Source: an uncultured Acidobacteriota bacterium (GTDB taxonomy: Bacteria; Acidobacteriota; Polarisedimenticolia; Polarisedimenticolales; DASRJG01). From it: DNA of 64,000 nt. Shown here one piece after another: positions 2,370 through 64,000 of the stretch. The stretch covers positions 54,089-118,088 of the forward strand of contig CAZEII010000007.1 in assembly GCA_964511835.1 (NCBI GenBank), in the 5' to 3' direction. The notes beneath the pieces were generated by a model that was not told the DNA's origin, ran no database searches, and was given only the letters and a program-made list of their open reading frames with translations. The position numbers were made by a program, and so were the translations under genes. Position 1 is the first letter of the stretch. Every line of letters starts with the position of its first letter.

Positions 2370-3923
2370 TTGACGACCGACCGCGACGTGCTGACGCCCG
2401 ATGGCTTGACCTTTGTCCTCGATCTGGGGCGGCGCTTCGCTCCGCGCGTGAGCGAGCTGCTGGAGGCGCGTCGCTCGATGCAGGCGCGCTACGACCGAGG
2501 CGACCGCCCGCGCTTTTTGCCCGAGACGCGCGAGATTCGCGAAGGGGCTTGGAAGATCGCCCCGCCCCCCGCGGATCTCGCGGACCGGAGGGTCGAGATC
2601 ACCGGCCCGGTCGACCGTAAGATGATCATCAACGCGTTGAACTCCGGCGCCTCCGTCTTCATGGCCGACTTCGAGGACTCGAACGCGCCGACCTGGGCCA
2701 ATGTGCTGGACGGCCAGGCCAACCTTCGGGATGCCGTCGACGGAACGATCGCGTACGACGACCCGGGCTCCGGCAAGAGCTACCGCCTCGGCGGGAAGAC
2801 CGCGGTGCTGATGGTCAGGCCGCGCGGCTGGCACCTCGTAGAGCGCCACGTCCAGGTGGACACCCGCCCGATTCCGGCCGGATTGTTCGACTTCGGTGTC
2901 TTCCTGTTTCACAACGCGAAGGCTCTGCTGTCGAAAGGATCGGGACCGTACTTCTACCTCCCGAAGATGCAAAGTCATCTCGAAGCTCGCCTGTGGAACG
3001 ACGTCTTCGTTCACGCCGAGCGAGCCCTCGGGTTACCGGCGGGAGTCATCAAAGCGACGGTCCTCATCGAGACGCTCCCGGCCGCCTTCGAGATGGATGA
3101 AATCCTCTGGGAACTGCGCGACCACGCCGCGGGACTCAATTGCGGGCGCTGGGACTACATCTTCAGCTTCATCAAGGTCCACCGGAACGATCCGGGCGCG
3201 GTCCTCCCGGACCGATCGCAGGTCACGATGGACCAAGGGTTTCTCCGGGCCTACACCCAGCTGCTGATCAAGACCTGCCATCGCCGCGGTGCCCATGCGA
3301 TGGGCGGCATGGCCGCCCAGATCCCGATCAAAGGCGACCTCGCCGCGAATGATGCCGCGATCGCGAAGGTCGTGGCGGACAAGCAGCGCGAGGTGCGCGA
3401 CGGGCACGACGGCACGTGGGTCGCCCACCCTGGGTTGGTGCCTGTCGCCGTCCAGGTTTTCGACGCGACGATGCCCGGGCCGAATCAGCTGACCAGGCTC
3501 CGCGAGGACGTCTCGGTGGGAGAGGCCGACCTTCTGGCCGTGCCGCGCGGGACGAGAACGGAGGCGGGACTGCGCTGGAACCTGCGCGTGGGGGTCCAAT
3601 ACCTGGAGGCCTGGCTTCGCGGCGTCGGATGCGTGCCCCTTTACCATCTGATGGAAGACGCCGCGACCGCCGAGATCTCGCGGACACAGGTCTGGCAGTG
3701 GATCCGCCACCGCGCGGCGCTCGATGACGGCCGCAAGGTCGACGCGCCGCTCGTGCACGCTACGTTCGAATCCGAAATGGCCGAGCTCCGTTCCGAGCTG
3801 GGAGCGGAGCGATTCGACGGCGGTCGGTTCAAGGAAGCCATCGCGCTGTTCGAGGGATTGATCTTTTCCTCGACGTTCGAAGAGTTTCTGACCATCCCGG
3901 CCTACGACCTTCTTCGCGATTGA
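2370..3923 (+). CDS. aceB: malate synthase A
   Basis: Motifs [38 protein letters not shown] and [12 protein letters not shown]. The length is 517 aa. The TTG start is uncertain. Confidence 0.9.
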
Positions 3924-7356: not shown

Positions 7357-7385
7357 CCGGAATAGGGGACACTCCCCTATTCCGG
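7357..7385. terminator. perfect 29-bp hairpin CCGGAATAGGGGACACTCCCCTATTCCGG. REP-like solo element and putative bidirectional terminator.
   Basis: 13-bp arms with a 3-nt loop. It starts 1 nt after the TAG of the M13 peptidase and contains the last 2 codons plus the TAG (cta, 7377-7379) of the convergent asparaginase gene. The sequence equals the fused termini of the full-length repeat at 61432..61512. Confidence 0.7.
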
Positions 7386-8959: not shown

Positions 8960-10606
8960 ATGAAGCTCATCGAATGCGTTCCGAATTTCAGCGAAGGGAG
9001 CGATCGCGCCGTGATCGACGCGATCGCAGCCGAGATCACCGCGACCCCCGGTGCGGTGCTGTTGGACGTCGATCCGGGAGTCGCCACCAATCGGACGGTC
9101 GTCACGTTCATCGGCGGCCCCGATGCGGTGGAGCAGGCGGCGTTCCGCGCCATCCGGAAGGCCGCGGCAACGATCGACATGACGAAGCATCGCGGCGAGC
9201 ACCCGCGCTTGGGCGCGACCGACGTCTGCCCGTTCGTTCCCGTTCAGGGCGCAACGATGGACGACTGCGTCGCCGTCGCGAAGCGGCTCGGCCGGCGCGT
9301 CGGCGAGGAGCTCGGTATTCCGGTCTACCTCTACGAGGCCGCAGCGACAACCCCGTCGCGCCGCTCGCTCGCGGACATCCGCAAGGGGGAATACGAGGCC
9401 CTGCCCGAGAAGATGAAGGATCCCTCGTTCGCTCCGGATTTCGGTCCCGCCCGGTTCAACTCGAAATCCGGCGCGACCGTCATCGGCGCGCGCGAATTCC
9501 TGATCGCCTACAACGTCAATCTGAACACCCGAGACAAGAAGCTCGCGACCGCCATCGCGCAGGCGATTCGGGAGGCCGGATCCTCGAAGCGCGGGCCCGA
9601 CGGCAAGCTCAGCGTCACACCGGGCCGGTTCAAGGAGTGCCGCGCGGTCGGCTGGTACATCGAGGAGTTCGGTCGGGCGCAAGTCTCGATCAACCTGACG
9701 AATTACAAGATCACGCCGGTTCACGCCGTCTTCGATGCAGTCTGCGAAGAAGCGGAGAAGCTCGGCCTGAGGGTCACGGGATCCGAGCTGGTCGGCCTGA
9801 TTCCGCGCGACGCACTGCTCGCGGCCGGCGACCACTATCTCTCCAAGCAGGGAAAGACGAGCGGAGTGCCCGAAAAGGAGCGCGTCCACACCTCGGTGCT
9901 CTCCCTGGGATTGTCCGAGCTCGCGCCGTTCGACCCCGGTCTCAAGGTGATCGAGTATCGCTACGCCGGAAAGCCGTCGGGGCTCGCCGCGATGAGTCTG
10001 TGCGACTTCGCCGACGAAGTCTCGAGCAGCTCCCCCGCTCCCGGAGGCGGAAGCGTCGCAGCGCTGTGCGGCGGCCTTTCGGCGGCGCTCTCGTCGATGG
10101 TCGCCGCGCTGGCTTGGCCGAAGCCCGGCATGGAGAGCGCTCGCCCTGTGCTGCGGTCCGCAGGAATCGAGGCGCAGTCCTTGAAAGACTGGTTCCTCGC
10201 AGCCGTCGAGCGCGACACCGAGGCTTTCAATGCCGTGCTCGCCGCCCGGCGACTACCGAAGGCGACCGACGACGACCTCGCCGCTCGCGACGCCGCCCTC
10301 GAGCGCGCGAGCCAGGGCGCTGCGCAAGTCCCGCTCGACGTTCTCGAGTCGTCCGTCAGGGCGTTGGAGCTCGCGCTCACGGCTGCCGCGAAGGGTCATC
10401 CAAGCTCGGCGTCGGATGCCGGCGTTGCGGGGGCGTGCGCGCTCGCCGCCGCGGAGGGAGCGTCGCTCAACGTGCGCATCAACACGCCGTCGTTGACCGA
10501 TCGGAAGGCGGCCGAGGATTTCGCACGCCGGCAGTCGAACGCGCTCGCTCGGGCGCGCGACCTGGCTGAGAGAGTTCGCGAGGCCGTCGACCGGGCGCTG
10601 AGCTAG
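8960..10606 (+). CDS. ftcD: bifunctional glutamate formimidoyltransferase / formimidoyltetrahydrofolate cyclodeaminase
   Basis: N-terminus MKLIECVPNFSEGSD is typical of the formiminotransferase domain. The C-terminal helical cyclodeaminase-like part reads (SSSPAPGGGSVAALCGGLSAALSSMV). The internal ATG of track ORF 8918..10606 was chosen as start. Confidence 0.85.
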   Translation: MKLIECVPNFSEGSDRAVIDAIAAEITATPGAVLLDVDPGVATNRTVVTFIGGPDAVEQAAFRAIRKAAATIDMTKHRGEHPRLGATDVCPFVPVQGATMDDCVAVAKRLGRRVGEELGIPVYLYEAAATTPSRRSLADIRKGEYEALPEKMKDPSFAPDFGPARFNSKSGATVIGAREFLIAYNVNLNTRDKKLATAIAQAIREAGSSKRGPDGKLSVTPGRFKECRAVGWYIEEFGRAQVSINLTNYKITPVHAVFDAVCEEAEKLGLRVTGSELVGLIPRDALLAAGDHYLSKQGKTSGVPEKERVHTSVLSLGLSELAPFDPGLKVIEYRYAGKPSGLAAMSLCDFADEVSSSSPAPGGGSVAALCGGLSAALSSMVAALAWPKPGMESARPVLRSAGIEAQSLKDWFLAAVERDTEAFNAVLAARRLPKATDDDLAARDAALERASQGAAQVPLDVLESSVRALELALTAAAKGHPSSASDAGVAGACALAAAEGASLNVRINTPSLTDRKAAEDFARRQSNALARARDLAERVREAVDRALS

Positions 10607-13913: not shown

Positions 13914-15302
13914 ATGAGAATCGTCTTCGCGGCTATGGTGCCTCTGTGCCTTGCGGTCGCCGTGATCGGCGCGGACAACGCCGAGCCGGTGCCGCGTATC
14001 GTGGATGCGGGCCTCAGGAGCGAGCAGGCCTACCGGAAGCTCTCCTGGCTCACCGACCGCATCGGTCCTCGCCTGTCCGGATCCGACAATCTCAACGCCG
14101 CGATCGCATGGACCCAGGCCGAGATGAAAAGGGACGGACTCGTCAACGTCGGTGCCGAGCGCGCGATGGTTCCTCACTGGGTGCGCGGCGAGGCGAGTGG
14201 AAGGATCCTCGCTCCCGCGCCGCATCCGATGGAGATCCTGGCGCTCGGCATGAGCGACGGTACGCCGCCCGAGGGGATCGCGGCGGACGTCATCGAGGTG
14301 TCGAGCCTCGAGGACGTTCAGGCGCTGGGCGACAAGGCCAAGGGAAAGATCGTCTTGTTCAACAAGAAGATCTTTCCCAACGGGGGAGACGATCGGGGCT
14401 ACGGCTCGGCGGCGGGCCTCCGCCACAAGGGGGCCGCCGCATCCGCGAAGGTCGGCGCGGTCGGTATGCTGATTCGCTCGCTGGCGACGGCCGATCTCAG
14501 GCTCCCGCACACGGGCTCGATGGAATACGAAGACGGCGTGCCGCACATCCCTGCCGCAGCGATCGCTCCGGAGGACGCCGAGCTGATTCACCGCTTTCTC
14601 GCCGCCGGCGAGACGGTCAAGGTCACGTTCACACTGTCGTGCAAGAACCTTCCCGACACCGAATCGGCGAACGTGGTCGGCGAAGTCCGTGGGAGCGAGA
14701 AGCCCGACGAGATCGTCGTGATCGGGGGCCACCTCGACTCGTGGGACGTCGGCACGGGAGCGCAGGACGACGGGGCCGGTTGCGCGGTCGTCATGGAGGC
14801 CGCGCGGTTGATCCGGTCGCTGGCCCTGAAGCCGAAGCGGACGATACGGGTCGTGCTCTTCACGAATGAAGAGAACGGGCTGCGCGGAGGCATCGCCTAC
14901 GCGAATACGCACGCGGCGGAGCTGTCGAAGCACGTCGCCGCGATCGAATCCGACTCCGGAGGGGCACGACCTCAAGGCTTCGGGGTCACCGCCGGACCCG
15001 GCGCCGTCGAGGTCGTCCGGAGACTGGCAGCCCCGCTCGCGCCGATCGCCGCGGACGACGTGCAGGCGGGCGGCGGCGGCGCGGACATTTCGAAGTTGGC
15101 CGATGCCGGGGTTCCCCAGCTCGGGCTTCGTCAAGACGGGACCCATTACTTCGACGTTCACCACACGATGGCCGACACGCTCGACAAGGTCGACCCGCAC
15201 GACCTTGCGATGAACGCGACGGCGATGGCGCTGATGGCCTGGCAGCTCGCGAACCTCGATCCGCCGCTCGCCCGCCCCGAACCGGCGCCTTCCAAGCCCT
15301 AG
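13914..15302 (+). CDS. M28 family aminopeptidase, secreted
   Basis: GGHLDSWDVGTGAQDDGAG and LFTNEENGLRG metal-ligand motifs, plus a signal peptide. Confidence 0.85.
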   Translation: MRIVFAAMVPLCLAVAVIGADNAEPVPRIVDAGLRSEQAYRKLSWLTDRIGPRLSGSDNLNAAIAWTQAEMKRDGLVNVGAERAMVPHWVRGEASGRILAPAPHPMEILALGMSDGTPPEGIAADVIEVSSLEDVQALGDKAKGKIVLFNKKIFPNGGDDRGYGSAAGLRHKGAAASAKVGAVGMLIRSLATADLRLPHTGSMEYEDGVPHIPAAAIAPEDAELIHRFLAAGETVKVTFTLSCKNLPDTESANVVGEVRGSEKPDEIVVIGGHLDSWDVGTGAQDDGAGCAVVMEAARLIRSLALKPKRTIRVVLFTNEENGLRGGIAYANTHAAELSKHVAAIESDSGGARPQGFGVTAGPGAVEVVRRLAAPLAPIAADDVQAGGGGADISKLADAGVPQLGLRQDGTHYFDVHHTMADTLDKVDPHDLAMNATAMALMAWQLANLDPPLARPEPAPSKP

Positions 15303-34992: not shown

Positions 34993-35017
34993 TGAAGAAA
35001 AAGGGGAGTGTCCCCTT
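34993..35017 (+). repeat. solo arm of the REP/REPIN-like family: GAAGAAAAAGGGGAGTGTCCCCTT (hairpin AAGGGGA-GTG-TCCCCTT)
   Basis: It matches the right arm of the full-length copy at 58033..58060 (GCGAAAAAAAGGGGAGTGTCCCCTTTTCC). It ends directly at the GTG start (35018) of the aminotransferase. Confidence 0.65.
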
Positions 35018-56679: not shown

Positions 56680-57231
56680 TTAAATGAACAGCGTCACGTG
56701 CGCGCGCCGCGCATAAGAGAGGAAAGCGGCGGCGCCGCCGAATTCTACGCCCGGGATGAAGTCGTCCTGGGTGAAGCCGAACACGTCCATGGTCATCTGA
56801 CAGGCGATCATCTGCACGCCGGATTCGCGTACGGCGTCGTGCAGCTCGTGAATCGGCGCGACGTTCTTCTTCGCGAACATCGATTTCATCATCATGGTCG
56901 CCATGCTCTGCATGCCCGGAAGCGCGTTGACGAGCTCGGGGATCGGCATGGGCATCGGCATGCCCGGATTGGCGACGGGCGACACCCTGAGCCTCGACTC
57001 GAAATCCTTGTGGATGACGTTGAGGCCGTAGAACGTGAAAAAGATCGAGGTTTCCATCCCGGCGGCCGCGGCGGCGCTTCCCAGGATCAGCGGTGGGTAG
57101 GCCCAATCGAGCGTTCCCTTCGAGGCGATGATCGCGGCCCGCTTCGCAGCCGGGTCTTTCTTCAGCGCGGCTTCGATCTCTTCGCGGACGATGCGGCGTA
57201 TCGCGGCTTCGTTGAGATCGACGTCGATCAT
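56680..57231 (-). CDS. DsrE/DsrF/DsrH-like family protein (COG2210-type)
   Basis: Internal ATG of track ORF 56680..57777: MIDVDLNEAAIRRIV...AAIIASKGTLDWAYPPLILGSAAAAAGMETSIFFTFYGL. Confidence 0.75.
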   Translation of the reverse strand: MIDVDLNEAAIRRIVREEIEAALKKDPAAKRAAIIASKGTLDWAYPPLILGSAAAAAGMETSIFFTFYGLNVIHKDFESRLRVSPVANPGMPMPMPIPELVNALPGMQSMATMMMKSMFAKKNVAPIHELHDAVRESGVQMIACQMTMDVFGFTQDDFIPGVEFGGAAAFLSYARRAHVTLFI

Positions 57232-57269
57232 GGCGAGCCTCCGAGCGGGATCGATCAGTATAGCGCCGC

Positions 57270-60416
<3,147 letters not shown>

Positions 60417-60423
60417 GAGTCTC

Positions 60424-61977
60424 TCACCCCACCTCTCCTTGCAGGTACCACCGATTCTTCCCCCGATCGAAGAACACCCACAAGTTCTGGCCGTTCTTCG
60501 TCTCGGCGAAGTGGTAATCCCGGAAGATCGGCTGCCTCCACCAATGACCCGACACGATGTAAGGCCCGTTCACCTTCACGACCGGCCCCTGCGCCAGACC
60601 GCGCAGCAGCCAGCCGTCGGGCTCGTGCCGCTCGCGCGGCGGGAGCGGCACCGGCGTCGTGAAGAGGCGGCGGATCAGGCGCGGCTCGTCGACGGTGCGA
60701 GGCTTGGCTTCGGGGAGCGAGGTCACCGGCGCCCAGGCGAAGCGCGCTTCGGGGAGGTGCGCGTCGCGCGGTTCGGCGCGCACGACGGCGTCGTCTCCCA
60801 ACGCCGCCTTCACGCGCGCCAGCGCCCGCGCGCCGGCTTCGAGATCGCGGCGCTTCTTCACGCCGAAGAGCTGGTGCTGCTTTTCGACGGCCGCCACCTC
60901 GCGTGCAACGAGGACGATCTCCATCACGCCGTCGGGGAGCTTCCGCACCGCCTGGAGACGCAGGCGGATCAGCTCGAGCAGGATCTTGGGGACGAGGGTG
61001 GGGGCCGCAGGCTGGATCGATTCGAGGTGCTCGCCCAGCCGCTCGAAGCGGAAGGCGATCTGCAGCTCGGCGAGGGCACGCCCCTTCGCCGCGATCTCGT
61101 CGAGCATCGGGCCGAGCGCCTCTTCGATGCGCGCGACGATGCGCAGCGCGTCGAGCTCGGGATCGTCGAGGATCAGGCGCCGCGTCGCGGGGATGACGGG
61201 ATGCTCGGGGACGAGCGGCTCCGTCAGCGCTCCCGATGCCAAACGATGGAGGCGGCGGACGTCGGGACCAAAGCGGACGCTCACGCCGTCCAGCGGGAGA
61301 TCGACGAATAGACCGACGGTCGTGATGCCCAGCTTCAAGAGCGTGTCGCGCGCTTGCGTGGGAAGCGCGAGCCGGTCGAGGCGGACTTCTCTCGCCGCTG
61401 CACGCTCGATTTCGGGTGTGTCGAAGACGACGGAATAGGGGACACTCCCCTTTTTCTTGCAAAGCTCCCCGGATACCGCTTTGCTGCGAAAAAGGGAAGT
61501 GTCCCCTATTCCCTTGGCGACGACATATACGGCAAAGCGATCAAAGCCCACGACGAGGGATGTGGTGAAGCCCGCGCGGACGACCTCAGCATGCAGCGAA
61601 GATGCCCACTCGGTGAGCGAGCCGAACAAACGCTCGAGCCCCTTGGCGTCGAGCCAGAAGACGCCGGGCTCGTCCCGGCCGGGCTCGACGAACGGCGTGA
61701 AGCGGCGGAGCAGCTCGGTCAGCTGCGCGATCTCGCCGTCGAGATCGCTCTGTGTGACGACGCCGGCACGCAAGCCGGCTGCGAGCGAGAGCCCGGCGGC
61801 GTAGCGCATGCCGGTCGAGATCCCGGCCGCTCGAGCCGCCTCGTTGATCCAGAGGATCGTCCCCTGGGGCGTGTCGGCCGCGACGACGGCGGCGGGATGC
61901 TCGCGCCAGTCCGGATGCTTCCGCAGCAGGAGCTGGAGCGGGAACGCGGGAAGGTCAATGCAGGCCGTCCGGTCCAC
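60424..61977 (-). CDS. imuB: Y-family polymerase-like protein ImuB, carrying an in-frame repeat insertion
   Basis: MDRTACIDLPAFPLQLLLRKHPDWREHPAAVVA. Its position between imuA and dnaE2 fits. Confidence 0.9.
   Translation of the reverse strand: MDRTACIDLPAFPLQLLLRKHPDWREHPAAVVAADTPQGTILWINEAARAAGISTGMRYAAGLSLAAGLRAGVVTQSDLDGEIAQLTELLRRFTPFVEPGRDEPGVFWLDAKGLERLFGSLTEWASSLHAEVVRAGFTTSLVVGFDRFAVYVVAKGIGDTSLFRSKAVSGELCKKKGSVPYSVVFDTPEIERAAAREVRLDRLALPTQARDTLLKLGITTVGLFVDLPLDGVSVRFGPDVRRLHRLASGALTEPLVPEHPVIPATRRLILDDPELDALRIVARIEEALGPMLDEIAAKGRALAELQIAFRFERLGEHLESIQPAAPTLVPKILLELIRLRLQAVRKLPDGVMEIVLVAREVAAVEKQHQLFGVKKRRDLEAGARALARVKAALGDDAVVRAEPRDAHLPEARFAWAPVTSLPEAKPRTVDEPRLIRRLFTTPVPLPPRERHEPDGWLLRGLAQGPVVKVNGPYIVSGHWWRQPIFRDYHFAETKNGQNLWVFFDRGKNRWYLQGEVG
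61432..61512 (+). repeat. full-length REPIN/RPE-like palindromic element, copy B (81 bp), inside imuB codons 156-182
   Basis: GGAATAGGGGACACTCCCCTTTTTCTTGCAAAGCTCCCCGGATACCGCTTTGCTGCGAAAAAGGGAAGTGTCCCCTATTCC. Translated in imuB as GIGDTSLFRSKAVSGELCKKKGSVPYS. Confidence 0.9.
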
Positions 61978-62587
61978 GACACACCTCCGTGATGCTCCAG
62001 GTTTTCCCCCCGCGCTTGTCCTTCAGCGCGACGGCCGCGCAGCTGAAGCGGCCCCCATCGCCGCGCACGCGCGAAGCGGTGTGCGCGCGCAGCGTCACGA
62101 GCGGGCCCAAGGACGGCCGCGCGGCGTCCTTGTCGGTCAGGCAGACGATCGCCGCGGCGTGCTGCCGCGCCAGCATCGCCAGGCGCGAGGTGGCGTGCAT
62201 GGGGAGGCGCGCGTCGGCGCCCAGGTCGAGCACGACGAGGCCGAACGCCCCCGAGCGAACGAGAAGATCCGCCGCCTTCGCCGCCGTGATCGCATCCTTC
62301 GCCCACACGACGGGGAGCGCCGTGAGATCGGCGCCAGCGTCCGCGGCATCGGGGGGATAGAACGGCGCATCCCTGCGCCCGATCCACGCCGCAGGCTCCC
62401 CGCGGCGCTGCGCATCGATGACCCATCGGAACGCGAGCGTCAACGGAGCCCCCGCGACCGAGGCGGATATCTCGATGAGACCAGAGAGGGAACATTCCCC
62501 TTTTTCTTGCAAAGCTCCCCGGATACCGCTTTGCGACGAAAAAGGGGAATGTTCCCTCTCGACCCTCTCCAAAGAATGCCCCCTCAT
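61955..62587 (-). CDS. imuA: ImuA-like (RecA/SulA-fold) translesion-synthesis accessory protein
   Basis: Internal ATG of track ORF 61955..63520 that overlaps the lexA stop (ATGA). GLIEISASVAGAPLTLAFRWVIDAQRRGEPAAWIGRR...GAFGLVVLDLG resembles the degenerate P-loop/RecA-like core of ImuA. The position between lexA and imuB fits. Confidence 0.75.
   Translation of the reverse strand: MRGHSLERVEREHSPFSSQSGIRGALQEKGECSLSGLIEISASVAGAPLTLAFRWVIDAQRRGEPAAWIGRRDAPFYPPDAADAGADLTALPVVWAKDAITAAKAADLLVRSGAFGLVVLDLGADARLPMHATSRLAMLARQHAAAIVCLTDKDAARPSLGPLVTLRAHTASRVRGDGGRFSCAAVALKDKRGGKTWSITEVCRGPDGLH
62484..62560 (+). repeat. full-length REPIN/RPE-like palindromic element, copy C (77 bp), at imuA codons ~10-35
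   Basis: GAGAGGGAACATTCCCCTTTTTCTTGCAAAGCTCCCCGGATACCGCTTTGCGACGAAAAAGGGGAATGTTCCCTCTC. In the imuA frame it reads EREHSPFSSQSGIRGALQEKGECSLS. Confidence 0.9.
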
Positions 62588-63189
62588 TCCAGTGACCTCC
62601 GCACTTCCACGACTCTGCCCAACACCTTGACGTCGGAGGGCTGAGGAACGATCGGTTGGTAGGCGTCGTTTTCGGGGTGAAGCTCGACGCGGCCGCGCTT
62701 CAGGTGGAGGCGCTTGATCGTCGCTTCGTCCCCCACCATCGCGACGACGATGTCGCCGGACGACGCGGTCGGCTGGCGGCGCACGATCACGACGTCCCCT
62801 TCGAGGATGCCGGCGTCTTTCATGCTGTCGCCGCGGACGCGCAGGCTGAACAGCTCGCCGGGTTGGCGGCGCGTCTGCACGGGGAGGTGCCCTTCGAGAT
62901 CTTCGACCGCCAGATCGAGCGGACCCGCGGGGACGCGGCCCAAGAGCGGCACCATCACCGTCGGCGCCTCGCCCCGGCCGGGCAACCTGAACCCCCGGGC
63001 GATGCCAGGGTCTTTCTTCAAGCGCCCCTCTTCGACCAGGCCGTCCAAGTGTTCCCGTGCCGTCTGCGGGGAACGGAAGCCGAAGGCTTCCATGACCTCG
63101 CGCACCGTCGGGGGCCGCCCCCCGGCGAGGCGGTCGCGGACGTAGCGAAAGACTTTTTCGCGCGTCTGGCCGGCGGGTGTGCGTCCCAT
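62584..63189 (-). CDS. lexA: LexA repressor (S24 peptidase)
   Basis: N-terminal wHTH (PTVREVMEAFGFRSPQTAREHL), LLGRVPAGPL (Ala-Gly cleavage site), GDSMKDAGI (Ser) and EATIKRL (Lys). GAAGGAGGG lies upstream of the ATG. Confidence 0.95.
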   Translation of the reverse strand: MGRTPAGQTREKVFRYVRDRLAGGRPPTVREVMEAFGFRSPQTAREHLDGLVEEGRLKKDPGIARGFRLPGRGEAPTVMVPLLGRVPAGPLDLAVEDLEGHLPVQTRRQPGELFSLRVRGDSMKDAGILEGDVVIVRRQPTASSGDIVVAMVGDEATIKRLHLKRGRVELHPENDAYQPIVPQPSDVKVLGRVVEVRRSLE

Positions 63190-63229
63190 GCCTGCCCTCC
63201 TTCAAGAACCCGTGCGTGGGATCAATATA

Positions 63230-63245
63230 CCATACAAATGTATGG
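63230..63245. promoter_or_regulatory. perfect 16-bp palindrome CCATACAAATGTATGG, candidate LexA operator in the lexA / small-peptide divergent region
   Basis: 7-bp arms with an AA centre, 41-56 nt upstream of the lexA ATG. On the lexA strand it is followed immediately by TATATT (a -10-like hexamer, 63224-63229). It sits in the only AT-rich patch of the region. Confidence 0.5.
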
Positions 63246-63331
63246 TGTACACAAAAACAACAATCCGCAGGAAAATTCTCCCAGGGCTTCTGACGTATGC
63301 TCGGAAACCCTTTGGAATGGAGGAGACTCCC

Positions 63332-63523
63332 ATGAAGAAAGTCGTCCGTCTCGTCGCGACGTTGGCCTTCGTCGGTTCGATCGGGCTCGGGATCACTGCC
63401 CTGCTCAGCACGCCGGTCAAGGCGGTCGACAACCCCTGCGATCCCACGTTCCAGATGCTGAGGAATTGCAGGGCCCAGCACGGGAAGTGGGACAGCTCGT
63501 GCTGCTGCTGTCGCCTGCATTGA
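63332..63523 (+). CDS. small secreted Cys-rich protein (63 aa precursor)
   Basis: GGAGGAG lies 7 nt upstream of the ATG. MKKVVRLVATLAFVGSIGLGITALLSTPVKA is a signal peptide. The predicted mature part, VDNPCDPTFQMLRNCRAQHGKWDSSCCCCRLH, has 6 Cys including a CCCC run. Confidence 0.6.
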   Translation: MKKVVRLVATLAFVGSIGLGITALLSTPVKAVDNPCDPTFQMLRNCRAQHGKWDSSCCCCRLH

Positions 63524-63579
63524 TCGTGTGGCTGGAATCGGCGAGAACCCAGTCCCCCGCCCTTTCGTAAGCTCCTCCG

Positions 63580-64000
63580 ATGAATCCCCGGCGGTTCGCC
63601 TCGGCGCTCGTCCTTGTGATCCCCCTCGCAGGGCGGGCGCCGGCGGCCGCCGCGGACCTCACCCCTGACGCCGCCTACGCTCTCGTCGTCCGGTCGCCGC
63701 TGTCGCGCGACCCGTTCCCCAAGCCCGAGGAGCTGACGGCGGCTCGCAAGGCGCTGGAGCCGCAAGCGACGCGGGATCCGAAATCGGCGCGCTGGGCCTA
63801 CGCCCTTGCGCACGTCGCCAATGCCGAGGCCGAACAGGCCAAGGGCGACGAGCAAAAAGCCAAGAGGAAGGAAGCGCTGGAGCGGTTCCAGCACGCCGCC
63901 GAGCTTCAGCCGAAGGACGCCGACAACCAGTTCTGGATCGGGAACGCGGCGTTCGACCATGTCGACGACGTCGGCATGCTCTCGCAGATGTCGCTCGCAT
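63580..64000 (+). CDS. secreted helical/TPR-like protein, C-terminal part lies outside the window
   Basis: Absent from the ORF track because there is no stop in the window. The ATG at 63580 gives MNPRRFASALVLVIPLAGRAPAAAADLTPD...KSARWAYALAHVANAEAEQAKGDEQKAKRKEALERFQHAAELQPKDADNQFWIGNAAF. Confidence 0.5.
   Translation, partial: MNPRRFASALVLVIPLAGRAPAAAADLTPDAAYALVVRSPLSRDPFPKPEELTAARKALEPQATRDPKSARWAYALAHVANAEAEQAKGDEQKAKRKEALERFQHAAELQPKDADNQFWIGNAAFDHVDDVGMLSQMSLA

Follow-up and report, generated by a model that had tools for sequence, protein, structure and literature searches.

A dyad in the lexA promoter of an uncultured Acidobacteriota bacterium as the probable operator of a lexA-imuA-imuB-dnaE2 cassette

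Introduction

Which DNA site does the repressor LexA recognize in an uncultured Acidobacteriota bacterium, and which genes would it control there? We address this question for a 64-kb stretch of DNA (contig CAZEII010000007.1, positions 54,089 to 118,088; the whole stretch is referred to as the window), in which a palindrome precedes lexA, and lexA is followed by imuA, imuB and dnaE2. The ImuA-ImuB-DnaE2 mutasome is the main damage-induced mutagenesis route in bacteria without Pol V. An earlier note on this DNA took the palindrome for a candidate non-canonical LexA box and for the operator of the whole unit. By comparing the promoters of homologous lexA genes, we find that a 22-bp dyad at 63227..63248 is very probably the operator of the LexA encoded downstream.

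The dyad in the lexA core promoter

The elements of the promoter, numbered from the first letter of the window, are as follows.

63230..63245, read on the plus strand: the 16-mer noted first, CCATACAAATGTATGG, with perfect 7-bp arms
63227..63248: the full 22-bp dyad ATACCATACAAATGTATGGTGT, composed as ATACCATACA-AA-TGTATGGTGT, with 10-bp arms and one mismatch; the proposed LexA operator
63246..63251, minus strand: -35-like hexamer TGTACA, separated by a 16-nt spacer from the -10 hexamer and overlapping one end of the dyad
63224..63229, minus strand: -10 hexamer TATATT, directly after the 16-mer on the lexA strand
63195..63203, minus strand: Shine-Dalgarno sequence GAAGGAGGG, 20 nt after the -10 hexamer and 5 nt before the lexA ATG

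The 16-mer lies 41-56 nt upstream of the lexA ATG (63189..63187, minus strand), and on the lexA strand TATATT (63229..63224) follows it directly, both as the earlier note had it. That note also described a perfect 16-bp palindrome abutting the -10 hexamer. The 7-bp arms are indeed perfect, but the AA centre is not self-complementary and breaks the symmetry (14/16 positions, two mismatches against its own reverse complement); the true dyad extends over 22 bp and lies 37-38 nt from lexA. In the same way, the hexamer adjoins the 16-mer but overlaps the full dyad by three bases, as the outer TAT of the dyad forms the first three bases of TATATT.

The sole sigma-70-like promoter called within 62400..63400 runs on the lexA strand, and the dyad-symmetric site spans its spacer and overlaps both of its hexamers. 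In many relatives TTGACA or TTGCAT adjoins the box directly, and the -35-like TGTACA of the window is a weaker hexamer than these. The core of the box reads ATAC-AAAT-GTAT, that is, two inverted tetranucleotide half-sites with a spacing of exactly 4 nt, in which AC...GT is kept. With a 22-column matrix derived from lexA promoters, the dyad scores 34.8 bits.

The geometry of the palindrome is not informative by itself. The window holds 12 perfect 7+2+7 inverted repeats, compared with a mean of 8.7 in shuffles, and the palindrome in the lexA promoter is their sole AT-rich member. Because such palindromes occur at roughly the chance rate, we dropped within-window statistics as proof of an operator, and the significance of the site rests on its position in the lexA promoter and its conservation across species. 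The statement that the window holds no second copy holds up: neither the 16-mer with up to three mismatches nor the core pattern RKACAWWTGTMY with up to one mismatch finds a further match in the 64 kb.

Conservation upstream of lexA in relatives

Phylogenetic footprinting, which the earlier note had named as a check, bears out the site. A protein-profile scan with one genome per species yielded 80 loci with a LexA 55-88% identical to the window protein, which together with the window make 81. They come from Acidobacteriota including Terriglobia, from Vicinamibacterales, from Planctomycetota, Desulfobacterales and other deltaproteobacterial bins, Zixiibacteriota, Chromatiales and others. Counting sites of at least 18 bits (22-column matrix) no more than 300 nt from the ATG, we found the box in 78 of the 81 lexA upstream regions, with the consensus ATACCAKACAWWTGTMTGGTAT. 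One of the three exceptions is truncated by a contig end, and the other two have the box farther upstream, at 349 and 625 nt.

The inner positions C9, A10, T13, G14 and T15 are kept in 75-78 of the 78 sites, and the AC...GT core among them (C9, A10, G14, T15) in 76-78. TTGAC or TTGC usually stands immediately before the box; in 54 of the 78 promoters a TANNNT hexamer starts with the last three bases of the box, and the median distance between box and ATG is 37 nt. Where the LexA proteins are 78-88% identical, the box and the -10 hexamer form the sole invariant block 5' of lexA, and the DNA beyond cannot be aligned. The site is therefore kept at orthologous lexA genes despite diverged flanks.

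We notice a possible covariation between the box and the protein. Half-site position 7 is T in 32 of 32 half-sites where residues 40-41 of the LexA recognition helix (helix 3) are Ser-Pro, and it is G only with Val at residue 41. This is suggestive of a direct read-out of the position by LexA.

Two further features of these promoters may be mentioned. In the leader just 3' of the -10 hexamer, the motif CCCACGCACGG (63204..63223, minus strand) recurs at the same position in six related loci (L001-L003, L005-L007); it is kept in most relatives with a 78-88% identical LexA, while the remaining leader is variable. The motif could be the transcription start region. Meanwhile, a lexA promoter of Desulfobacterales (L080, about 9930..9975) holds two boxes in tandem, ATACCGTACATTTGTACAGTAT and, about 30 nt further downstream, TACCAGACATTTGTATGGAT.

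The lexA-imuA-imuB-dnaE2 cassette and sites elsewhere

The genes downstream of the box and the open reading frame (ORF) on its other side are listed here.

62584..63189, minus strand: lexA, 201 aa, with LexA DNA-binding domain and S24 peptidase domain
61955..62587, minus strand: imuA, at most 210 aa, assigned from third-codon-position GC and homology
60424..61977, minus strand: imuB, homologue of Y-family polymerases; it has an IMS domain and its scores stay far under the DinB cut-offs
57270..60416, minus strand: dnaE2 (imuC), error-prone DNA polymerase, 1314 bits against NF004225
63332..63523, plus strand: divergent ORF of 63 aa with a signal peptide and a Cys-rich C-terminus (…DSSCCCCRLH)

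The lexA product is a canonical LexA. It scores 170 bits against TIGR00498 (cut-off 111), matches both PF01726 and PF00717, and its Ala-Gly cleavage site (VPAGP), the serine of GDSM and the lysine of KRL align with those of E. coli LexA. Its nearest named homologues belong to Acidobacteriota, for example Candidatus Polarisedimenticolaceae. ImuA is 55% identical to Thiocystis ImuA (E 2e-61), and its match to NF033429 is weak. The imuA ATG (62587) overlaps the lexA stop codon (ATGA), and independent gene calls also start the next gene there; its actual start is uncertain, as a palindromic repeat element encodes residues 13-37. Another frame considered for imuA, 61719..62495, was ruled out, as it has no family match and no similarity to Thiocystis ImuA.

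Reading frames imuA and imuB overlap, and a gap of 7 nt separates imuB from dnaE2. Since the genes overlap or sit 7 nt apart, lexA, imuA, imuB and dnaE2 probably form one transcript. This linkage is widespread in the relatives: 68 of the 69 loci with sufficient sequence have imuA after lexA, and 48 of 53 have imuB and dnaE2 as well. A Pfam search of ten neighbouring ORFs in the window found no SOS-type gene. The divergent ORF is also called by gene callers on independent contigs; it has no family match and is not kept beside lexA in relatives.

Our box searches covered the window, the loci of the relatives and a metagenome collection. In 1.27 Mb around the 80 homologous lexA genes, 84 sites reach at least 14 bits, compared with none in five shuffles. 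Most of them (81/84) lie upstream of lexA. Two of the remaining three stand before a dnaE2 located apart from lexA-imuA-imuB: in Thiocystis violacea (L043) the site precedes the gene by about 140 nt, in L062 by about 50 nt. Each of these two dnaE2 products scores above 1300 bits against NF004225. The third, in L070, stands upstream of a degraded lexA fragment followed by imuA-imuB-dnaE2. Sites away from lexA in the relatives thus precede dnaE2 or imuA only, and the window has no extra site. Because all 84 sites belong to lexA or the mutagenesis cassette, the box tracks only these genes in this sample.

The degraded lexA remnants deserve a description of their own. In L070 (12219..13259) and L102 (about 2604), C-terminal peptides such as DEATVKTFRPRGRRVELRPENPAFEP and VIEVKRSLE remain, the box is retained upstream, and imuA or imuB and dnaE2 follow. 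L070 also has an intact lexA with its own box 2.2 kb upstream of the remnant. These remnants point to cassette duplication or replacement of the repressor gene.

An extended dyad shared by divergent LexA clades

We scanned the metagenome collection with the exact pattern TACCRKACAWWTGTMYGGTA, the perfect 20-mer consensus, and obtained at least 122 sites at no fewer than 120 loci. Among the matches listed, about 80 sites lie directly upstream of a lexA homologue, and 3 more adjoin lexA fragments cut by a contig end. The site in L102 precedes imuB with a lexA remnant, and that in L111 precedes a DnaE-type polymerase. The high-GC sites away from lexA have mixed neighbours, with no recurrent SOS gene among the matches listed.

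Many of the LexA proteins found by the scan are only 30-45% identical to the window LexA and fall into further clades. The extended dyad ATACC-AKACA-WW-TGTMT-GGTAT is common to at least four LexA clades, which differ in their recognition helices. The helices SPQTAREHL and AVQTAREHL occur in Acidobacteriota, Planctomycetota, Desulfobacterales and other deltaproteobacterial bins, Zixiibacteriota and Chromatiales. AVETARAHL marks a further high-GC clade, NRQGIDQHL belongs to Steroidobacteraceae-like Gammaproteobacteria, and NRATVQQHL to Ignavibacteria.

In the gammaproteobacterial high-GC clade (L083, L095, L117, L120, L139, L179, L195), whose recognition helix reads NRQGIDQHL and whose one named homologue is from Steroidobacteraceae, the box lies a few nucleotides from the predicted start codon or overlaps it. 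The lexA2 promoter of P. putida has a similar layout, with 3 nt between the end of the box and the ATG. On the same contig, dnaE2 is found in 5 of the 7 loci, and imuB as well in 4 of those.

Contigs of Ignavibacteria (29-39% GC) carry the identical 20-mer TACCATACAWWTGTATGGTA before lexA, whose product is 31-40% identical to the window LexA. An assignment of these low-GC lexA loci to Patescibacteria was ruled out, as the named homologues are from Ignavibacteria. A literature search found no description of a LexA box for Ignavibacteria. Loci and further sites in low-GC contigs are given below.

TACCATACAWWTGTATGGTA before lexA, Ignavibacteria: L085, L090, L092, L094, L108, L112, L119, L121, L124, L128, L130, L134, L141, L150, L155, L163, L165, L167, L172-L174, L181, L196, L197, L199, L200 and others
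Box directly before a protein of about 90 aa: L081 1394, L085 1754, L097 832, L133 2052, L137 1066, L144 1558, L162 416, L192 879
Box before a phage terminase small subunit (PF03592): L198 256 (38% GC)

The protein of about 90 aa recurs in contigs of 31-36% GC, probably from Ignavibacteria; it contains a CPCSECW motif and has no Pfam match. Together with the terminase site, this suggests LexA-controlled prophage or mobile genes in the low-GC contigs.

Does the extended dyad represent a LexA-binding motif that has yet to be catalogued? We entertain this tentatively, as a possibility on the lesser side of even. If it is true, the extended dyad would be an old form that gave rise to the shorter boxes of Pseudomonas LexA2 and of cyanobacteria, and the main SOS regulon of Ignavibacteria would be defined by it, apparently with prophage genes among the members. 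The same box in LexA clades that are only 30-45% identical to each other bears on how a motif is retained or changed after duplication and transfer of the cassette, and one extended box across very divergent clades may merit a dedicated comparative study.

Operator function and alternative explanations

In the model that we propose, a LexA dimer would bind both half-sites, ACCATACA and its mirror image, which contain the AC-N4-GT core. LexA bound there would keep RNA polymerase out, since the site takes up the whole promoter spacer and extends into both hexamers. Until DNA is damaged, the box would hold down both the repressor and the translesion mutasome ImuA-ImuB-DnaE2, and it would control the two together, because the four genes are tightly packed and probably share one transcript. 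Upon damage, RecA would stimulate the self-cleavage of LexA, for which the Ala-Gly site, the serine and the lysine are present, and the promoter would be freed. LexA binding, repression, co-transcription and damage induction are all inferred by analogy with the lexA2-imuA-imuB-imuC operon of P. putida, whose operator has the same core.

The proposal that the palindrome is the operator of the whole lexA-imuA-imuB-dnaE2 unit finds support in the 78 of 81 homologue promoters, the position in the spacer, the recurrence at dnaE2 or imuA and the tight packing of the genes. The box is thereby a probable switch for the mutasome ImuA-ImuB-DnaE2 in uncultured Acidobacteriota and several other environmental phyla, and a validated box matrix would let SOS and mutagenesis regulons be predicted straight from metagenome-assembled genomes.

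Several points weigh against this reading. It is wholly comparative, for the organism and for the LexA clade alike. No other site of at least 14 bits exists in the 64-kb window, and no regulon membership beyond the cassette is demonstrable there. The half-sites ATAC/GTAT match exactly neither the Pseudomonas LexA2 consensus GTACNNNNGTGC nor the cyanobacterial RGTACNNNDGTWCB. The covariation at half-site position 7 is confounded by phylogeny. The outer bases of the box (ATA...TAT) fall where it overlaps the promoter hexamers, so that promoter elements, and not contacts with LexA, could account for part of their conservation. In addition, the palindromic repeat element between lexA and the conserved part of imuA could modulate read-through into the downstream genes.

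How far does the regulon of this LexA reach? Instead of being a cassette-restricted second LexA of the LexA2 kind, it might be the general SOS repressor, with boxes also before recA, uvrA, ssb and similar genes. In the low-GC Ignavibacteria the identical 20-mer does stand before recurrent non-lexA genes as well, which indicates that this box type can serve a wider regulon, and no second lexA is seen in the window. We nevertheless consider a general role rather doubtful: every extra site in the 1.27 Mb belongs to the cassette, the high-GC metagenome sites lack a recurrent SOS neighbour as described above, and the clade of the window LexA is nearly always physically linked to imuA-imuB-dnaE2. 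Such linkage is also the pattern of the Pseudomonas LexA2, whose regulon, in work ascribed to Abella and colleagues in 2007, is reported to be essentially its own operon.

The identity of the binding protein can also be questioned. The box lies within a divergent intergenic region of 142 nt, its assignment to LexA is drawn from sequence comparison, and a different regulator might act here, for instance one encoded elsewhere or one serving the divergent gene 63332..63523. Such a regulator is very improbable, since the box follows lexA across genomes with differing upstream neighbours (the upstream DNA is unalignable even at 78-88% LexA identity), keeps a fixed place in the lexA promoter, recurs at dnaE2 or imuA promoters, and contains the core of a characterised LexA2 operator. 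We give hardly any credence to the idea that the palindrome arose by chance or is purely a promoter feature, an AT-rich spacer with its hexamers and without a repressor role. The number of 7+2+7 palindromes in the window and the coincidence of the outer dyad bases with the promoter hexamers would fit it; sigma-70 spacers, however, are not normally conserved, yet C9, A10, T13, G14 and T15 are kept across phyla, and no site of at least 14 bits appears in shuffled DNA. Repression of the cassette by its own LexA is the explanation that we favour.

A palindromic repeat element in the cassette

The repeat element that blurs the start of imuA is about 70-85 bp long, with the stem GGGGAAYAYTCCCCTTTTT and the loop core GCAAAGCGGTATCCGGGGAGCTTTGC.

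Window 62487..62557, 61432..61496 and 57978..58060: three copies in the cassette
Window 7359..7381 and 34998..35017: partial arms
Relatives: L001 7230..7304; L003 10636..10706 and 15143..15205; L006 3884..3956 and 2816..2868

All three cassette copies are in frame: one in the N-terminus of imuA, one in imuB and one in the HHH_6 domain of dnaE2, into which it inserts a peptide reading about EKGTLPFFSQSSPDTALRKNRGVSPFPF. Relatives carry the element at the same place after lexA, and the L003 copy is also in frame with imuA. The RNA of 62440..62600 (minus strand) has a folding energy of -90.3 kcal/mol (z -7.5); promoter and terminator calling gave no terminator-like site at the element in this interval. 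An Rfam search of 57000..64000 found no known RNA family, and its hits were confined to sub-threshold hairpin look-alikes (miRNA models) on the palindromic elements. The element recalls the Rickettsia palindromic elements.

Elsewhere, a protein identical to the window LexA was found only on contigs of 2-3 kb. The three retrieved (L201-L203; Logan SRR12313478, SRR12313483, SRR12313484) all end about 78 nt after the lexA stop, inside the palindromic element, which fits an assembly break at a repeat with many genomic copies.

Comparison with known LexA boxes

The box reported for the phylum of the host is of another kind. Acidobacterium capsulatum, which is also a member of Acidobacteriota, reportedly has the box GTTC-N7-GTTC, a direct repeat of the alphaproteobacterial type, in work ascribed to Mazon and colleagues in 2006 (cited by title in PMC3789691); the window box is a dyad. 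The 64 kb contain two matches to GTTC-N7-GTTC (8304 and 54438; 2.4 expected), none near lexA. As the direct repeat occurs at chance level and not near lexA, the window box is not the one published for Acidobacteriota, and the phylum would hold a second LexA-box type.

The E. coli SOS box is CTGT-N8-ACAG. Its logic is alike, with a dyad in the core promoter, an autoregulated lexA and RecA-triggered self-cleavage, whereas its half-sites and spacing differ from those of the window box. Residues 10-182 of the window LexA can be aligned to structures of E. coli LexA. In the DNA-contacting residues of helix 3 (as given in PMC3091678), E. coli LexA reads SPNAAEEHL and the window LexA SPQTAREHL.

The Gram-positive LexA (DinR) box, CGAAC-N4-GTTCG in Bacillus subtilis, has the N4 spacing and the AC...GT of the window box, and differs in its half-sites (GAAC/GTTC against ATAC/GTAT). 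GAAC-N4-GTTC occurs in the 64-kb window at chance level and not near lexA.

Cyanobacterial LexA boxes are closer. They follow RGTACNNNDGTWCB or AGTACWNWTGTACT (Mazon et al. 2004; PMC3091678), a pattern called rather similar to the Gram-positive box, and are predicted before recA, uvrA, ssb and other genes (PMC3091678). The box GGTACAAATGTATT, predicted in front of a cyanobacterial lexA, shares 11 of 14 positions with the window core, and the Nostoc all4790 box CGTACATTTGTACC shares 13 of 14 with the core of relatives such as L008, L013 and L014 (boxes from PMC3091678). Spacing and core are the same, but of the 11 positions that RGTACNNNDGTWCB specifies, 3 are not matched by the window site. 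The flanks are A...T in cyanobacteria and CC...GG in the window, and cyanobacterial LexA lacks the linkage to imuA-imuB-dnaE2 that the window has. When the 14-nt cores are scored with the core of our matrix, the window reaches 26.4 bits, Nostoc all4790 13.7, Prochlorococcus lexA 12.5, P. fluorescens LexA2 11.9 and the B. subtilis consensus 5.5, with a minimum of 10.6 in the family.

A close counterpart is the Pseudomonas LexA2 operator. In P. putida KT2440 and P. fluorescens, the lexA2-imuABC promoters carry GAGTACAAATGTGCTC and GAGTACAAATGTACTC (PMC5544203 S6 Fig); the LexA2 consensus is GTAC-N4-GTGC in the form in which PMC5544203 cites Abella et al. 2004. The imuABC genes of this operon are transcribed together with lexA2, induced by DNA damage and under the control of LexA2 (PMC5261740). 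The earlier note's view that the window box matches no known box does not survive this comparison, as the central 10 nt, TACAAATGTA, are identical in the two, and the cyanobacterial core is near. Comparison of boxes and gene order further shows in both a palindrome with a 4-nt centre, the AC...GT core, a location at the -10 hexamer, a predicted autoregulatory role and a lexA that heads imuA-imuB-dnaE2. The differences lie in the half-sites (GTAC/GTGC in Pseudomonas, ATAC/GTAT in the window), in the flanks (GA...TC against CC...GG within the ATACC...GGTAT of the 22-bp dyad) and in the distance to the ATG (3-4 nt against 37 nt). A tblastn search of LexA against a plasmid collection returned no relative above 46% identity and no Pseudomonas LexA2.

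On these grounds we classify the window box as a variant of the GTAC-N4-GTAC lineage and not as a new type; it is filed as a variant, not as a strict member, because the strict published consensus sequences are unmatched. It agrees with GTAC-N4-GTAC at 6 of 8 positions, the outer bases being A for G and T for C, and the relatives L001, L005, L008, L013 and L014 do read GTAC...GTAC. The window box is distinctive in the CC...GG flank of its extended dyad and in the A for G at the outer half-site base. It shares with the GTAC-N4-GTRC class, to which the Pseudomonas LexA2 and cyanobacterial boxes belong, the inverted half-sites spaced by 4 nt with an invariant AC...GT, and with the LexA2 type its place at the head of lexA-imuA-imuB-dnaE2.

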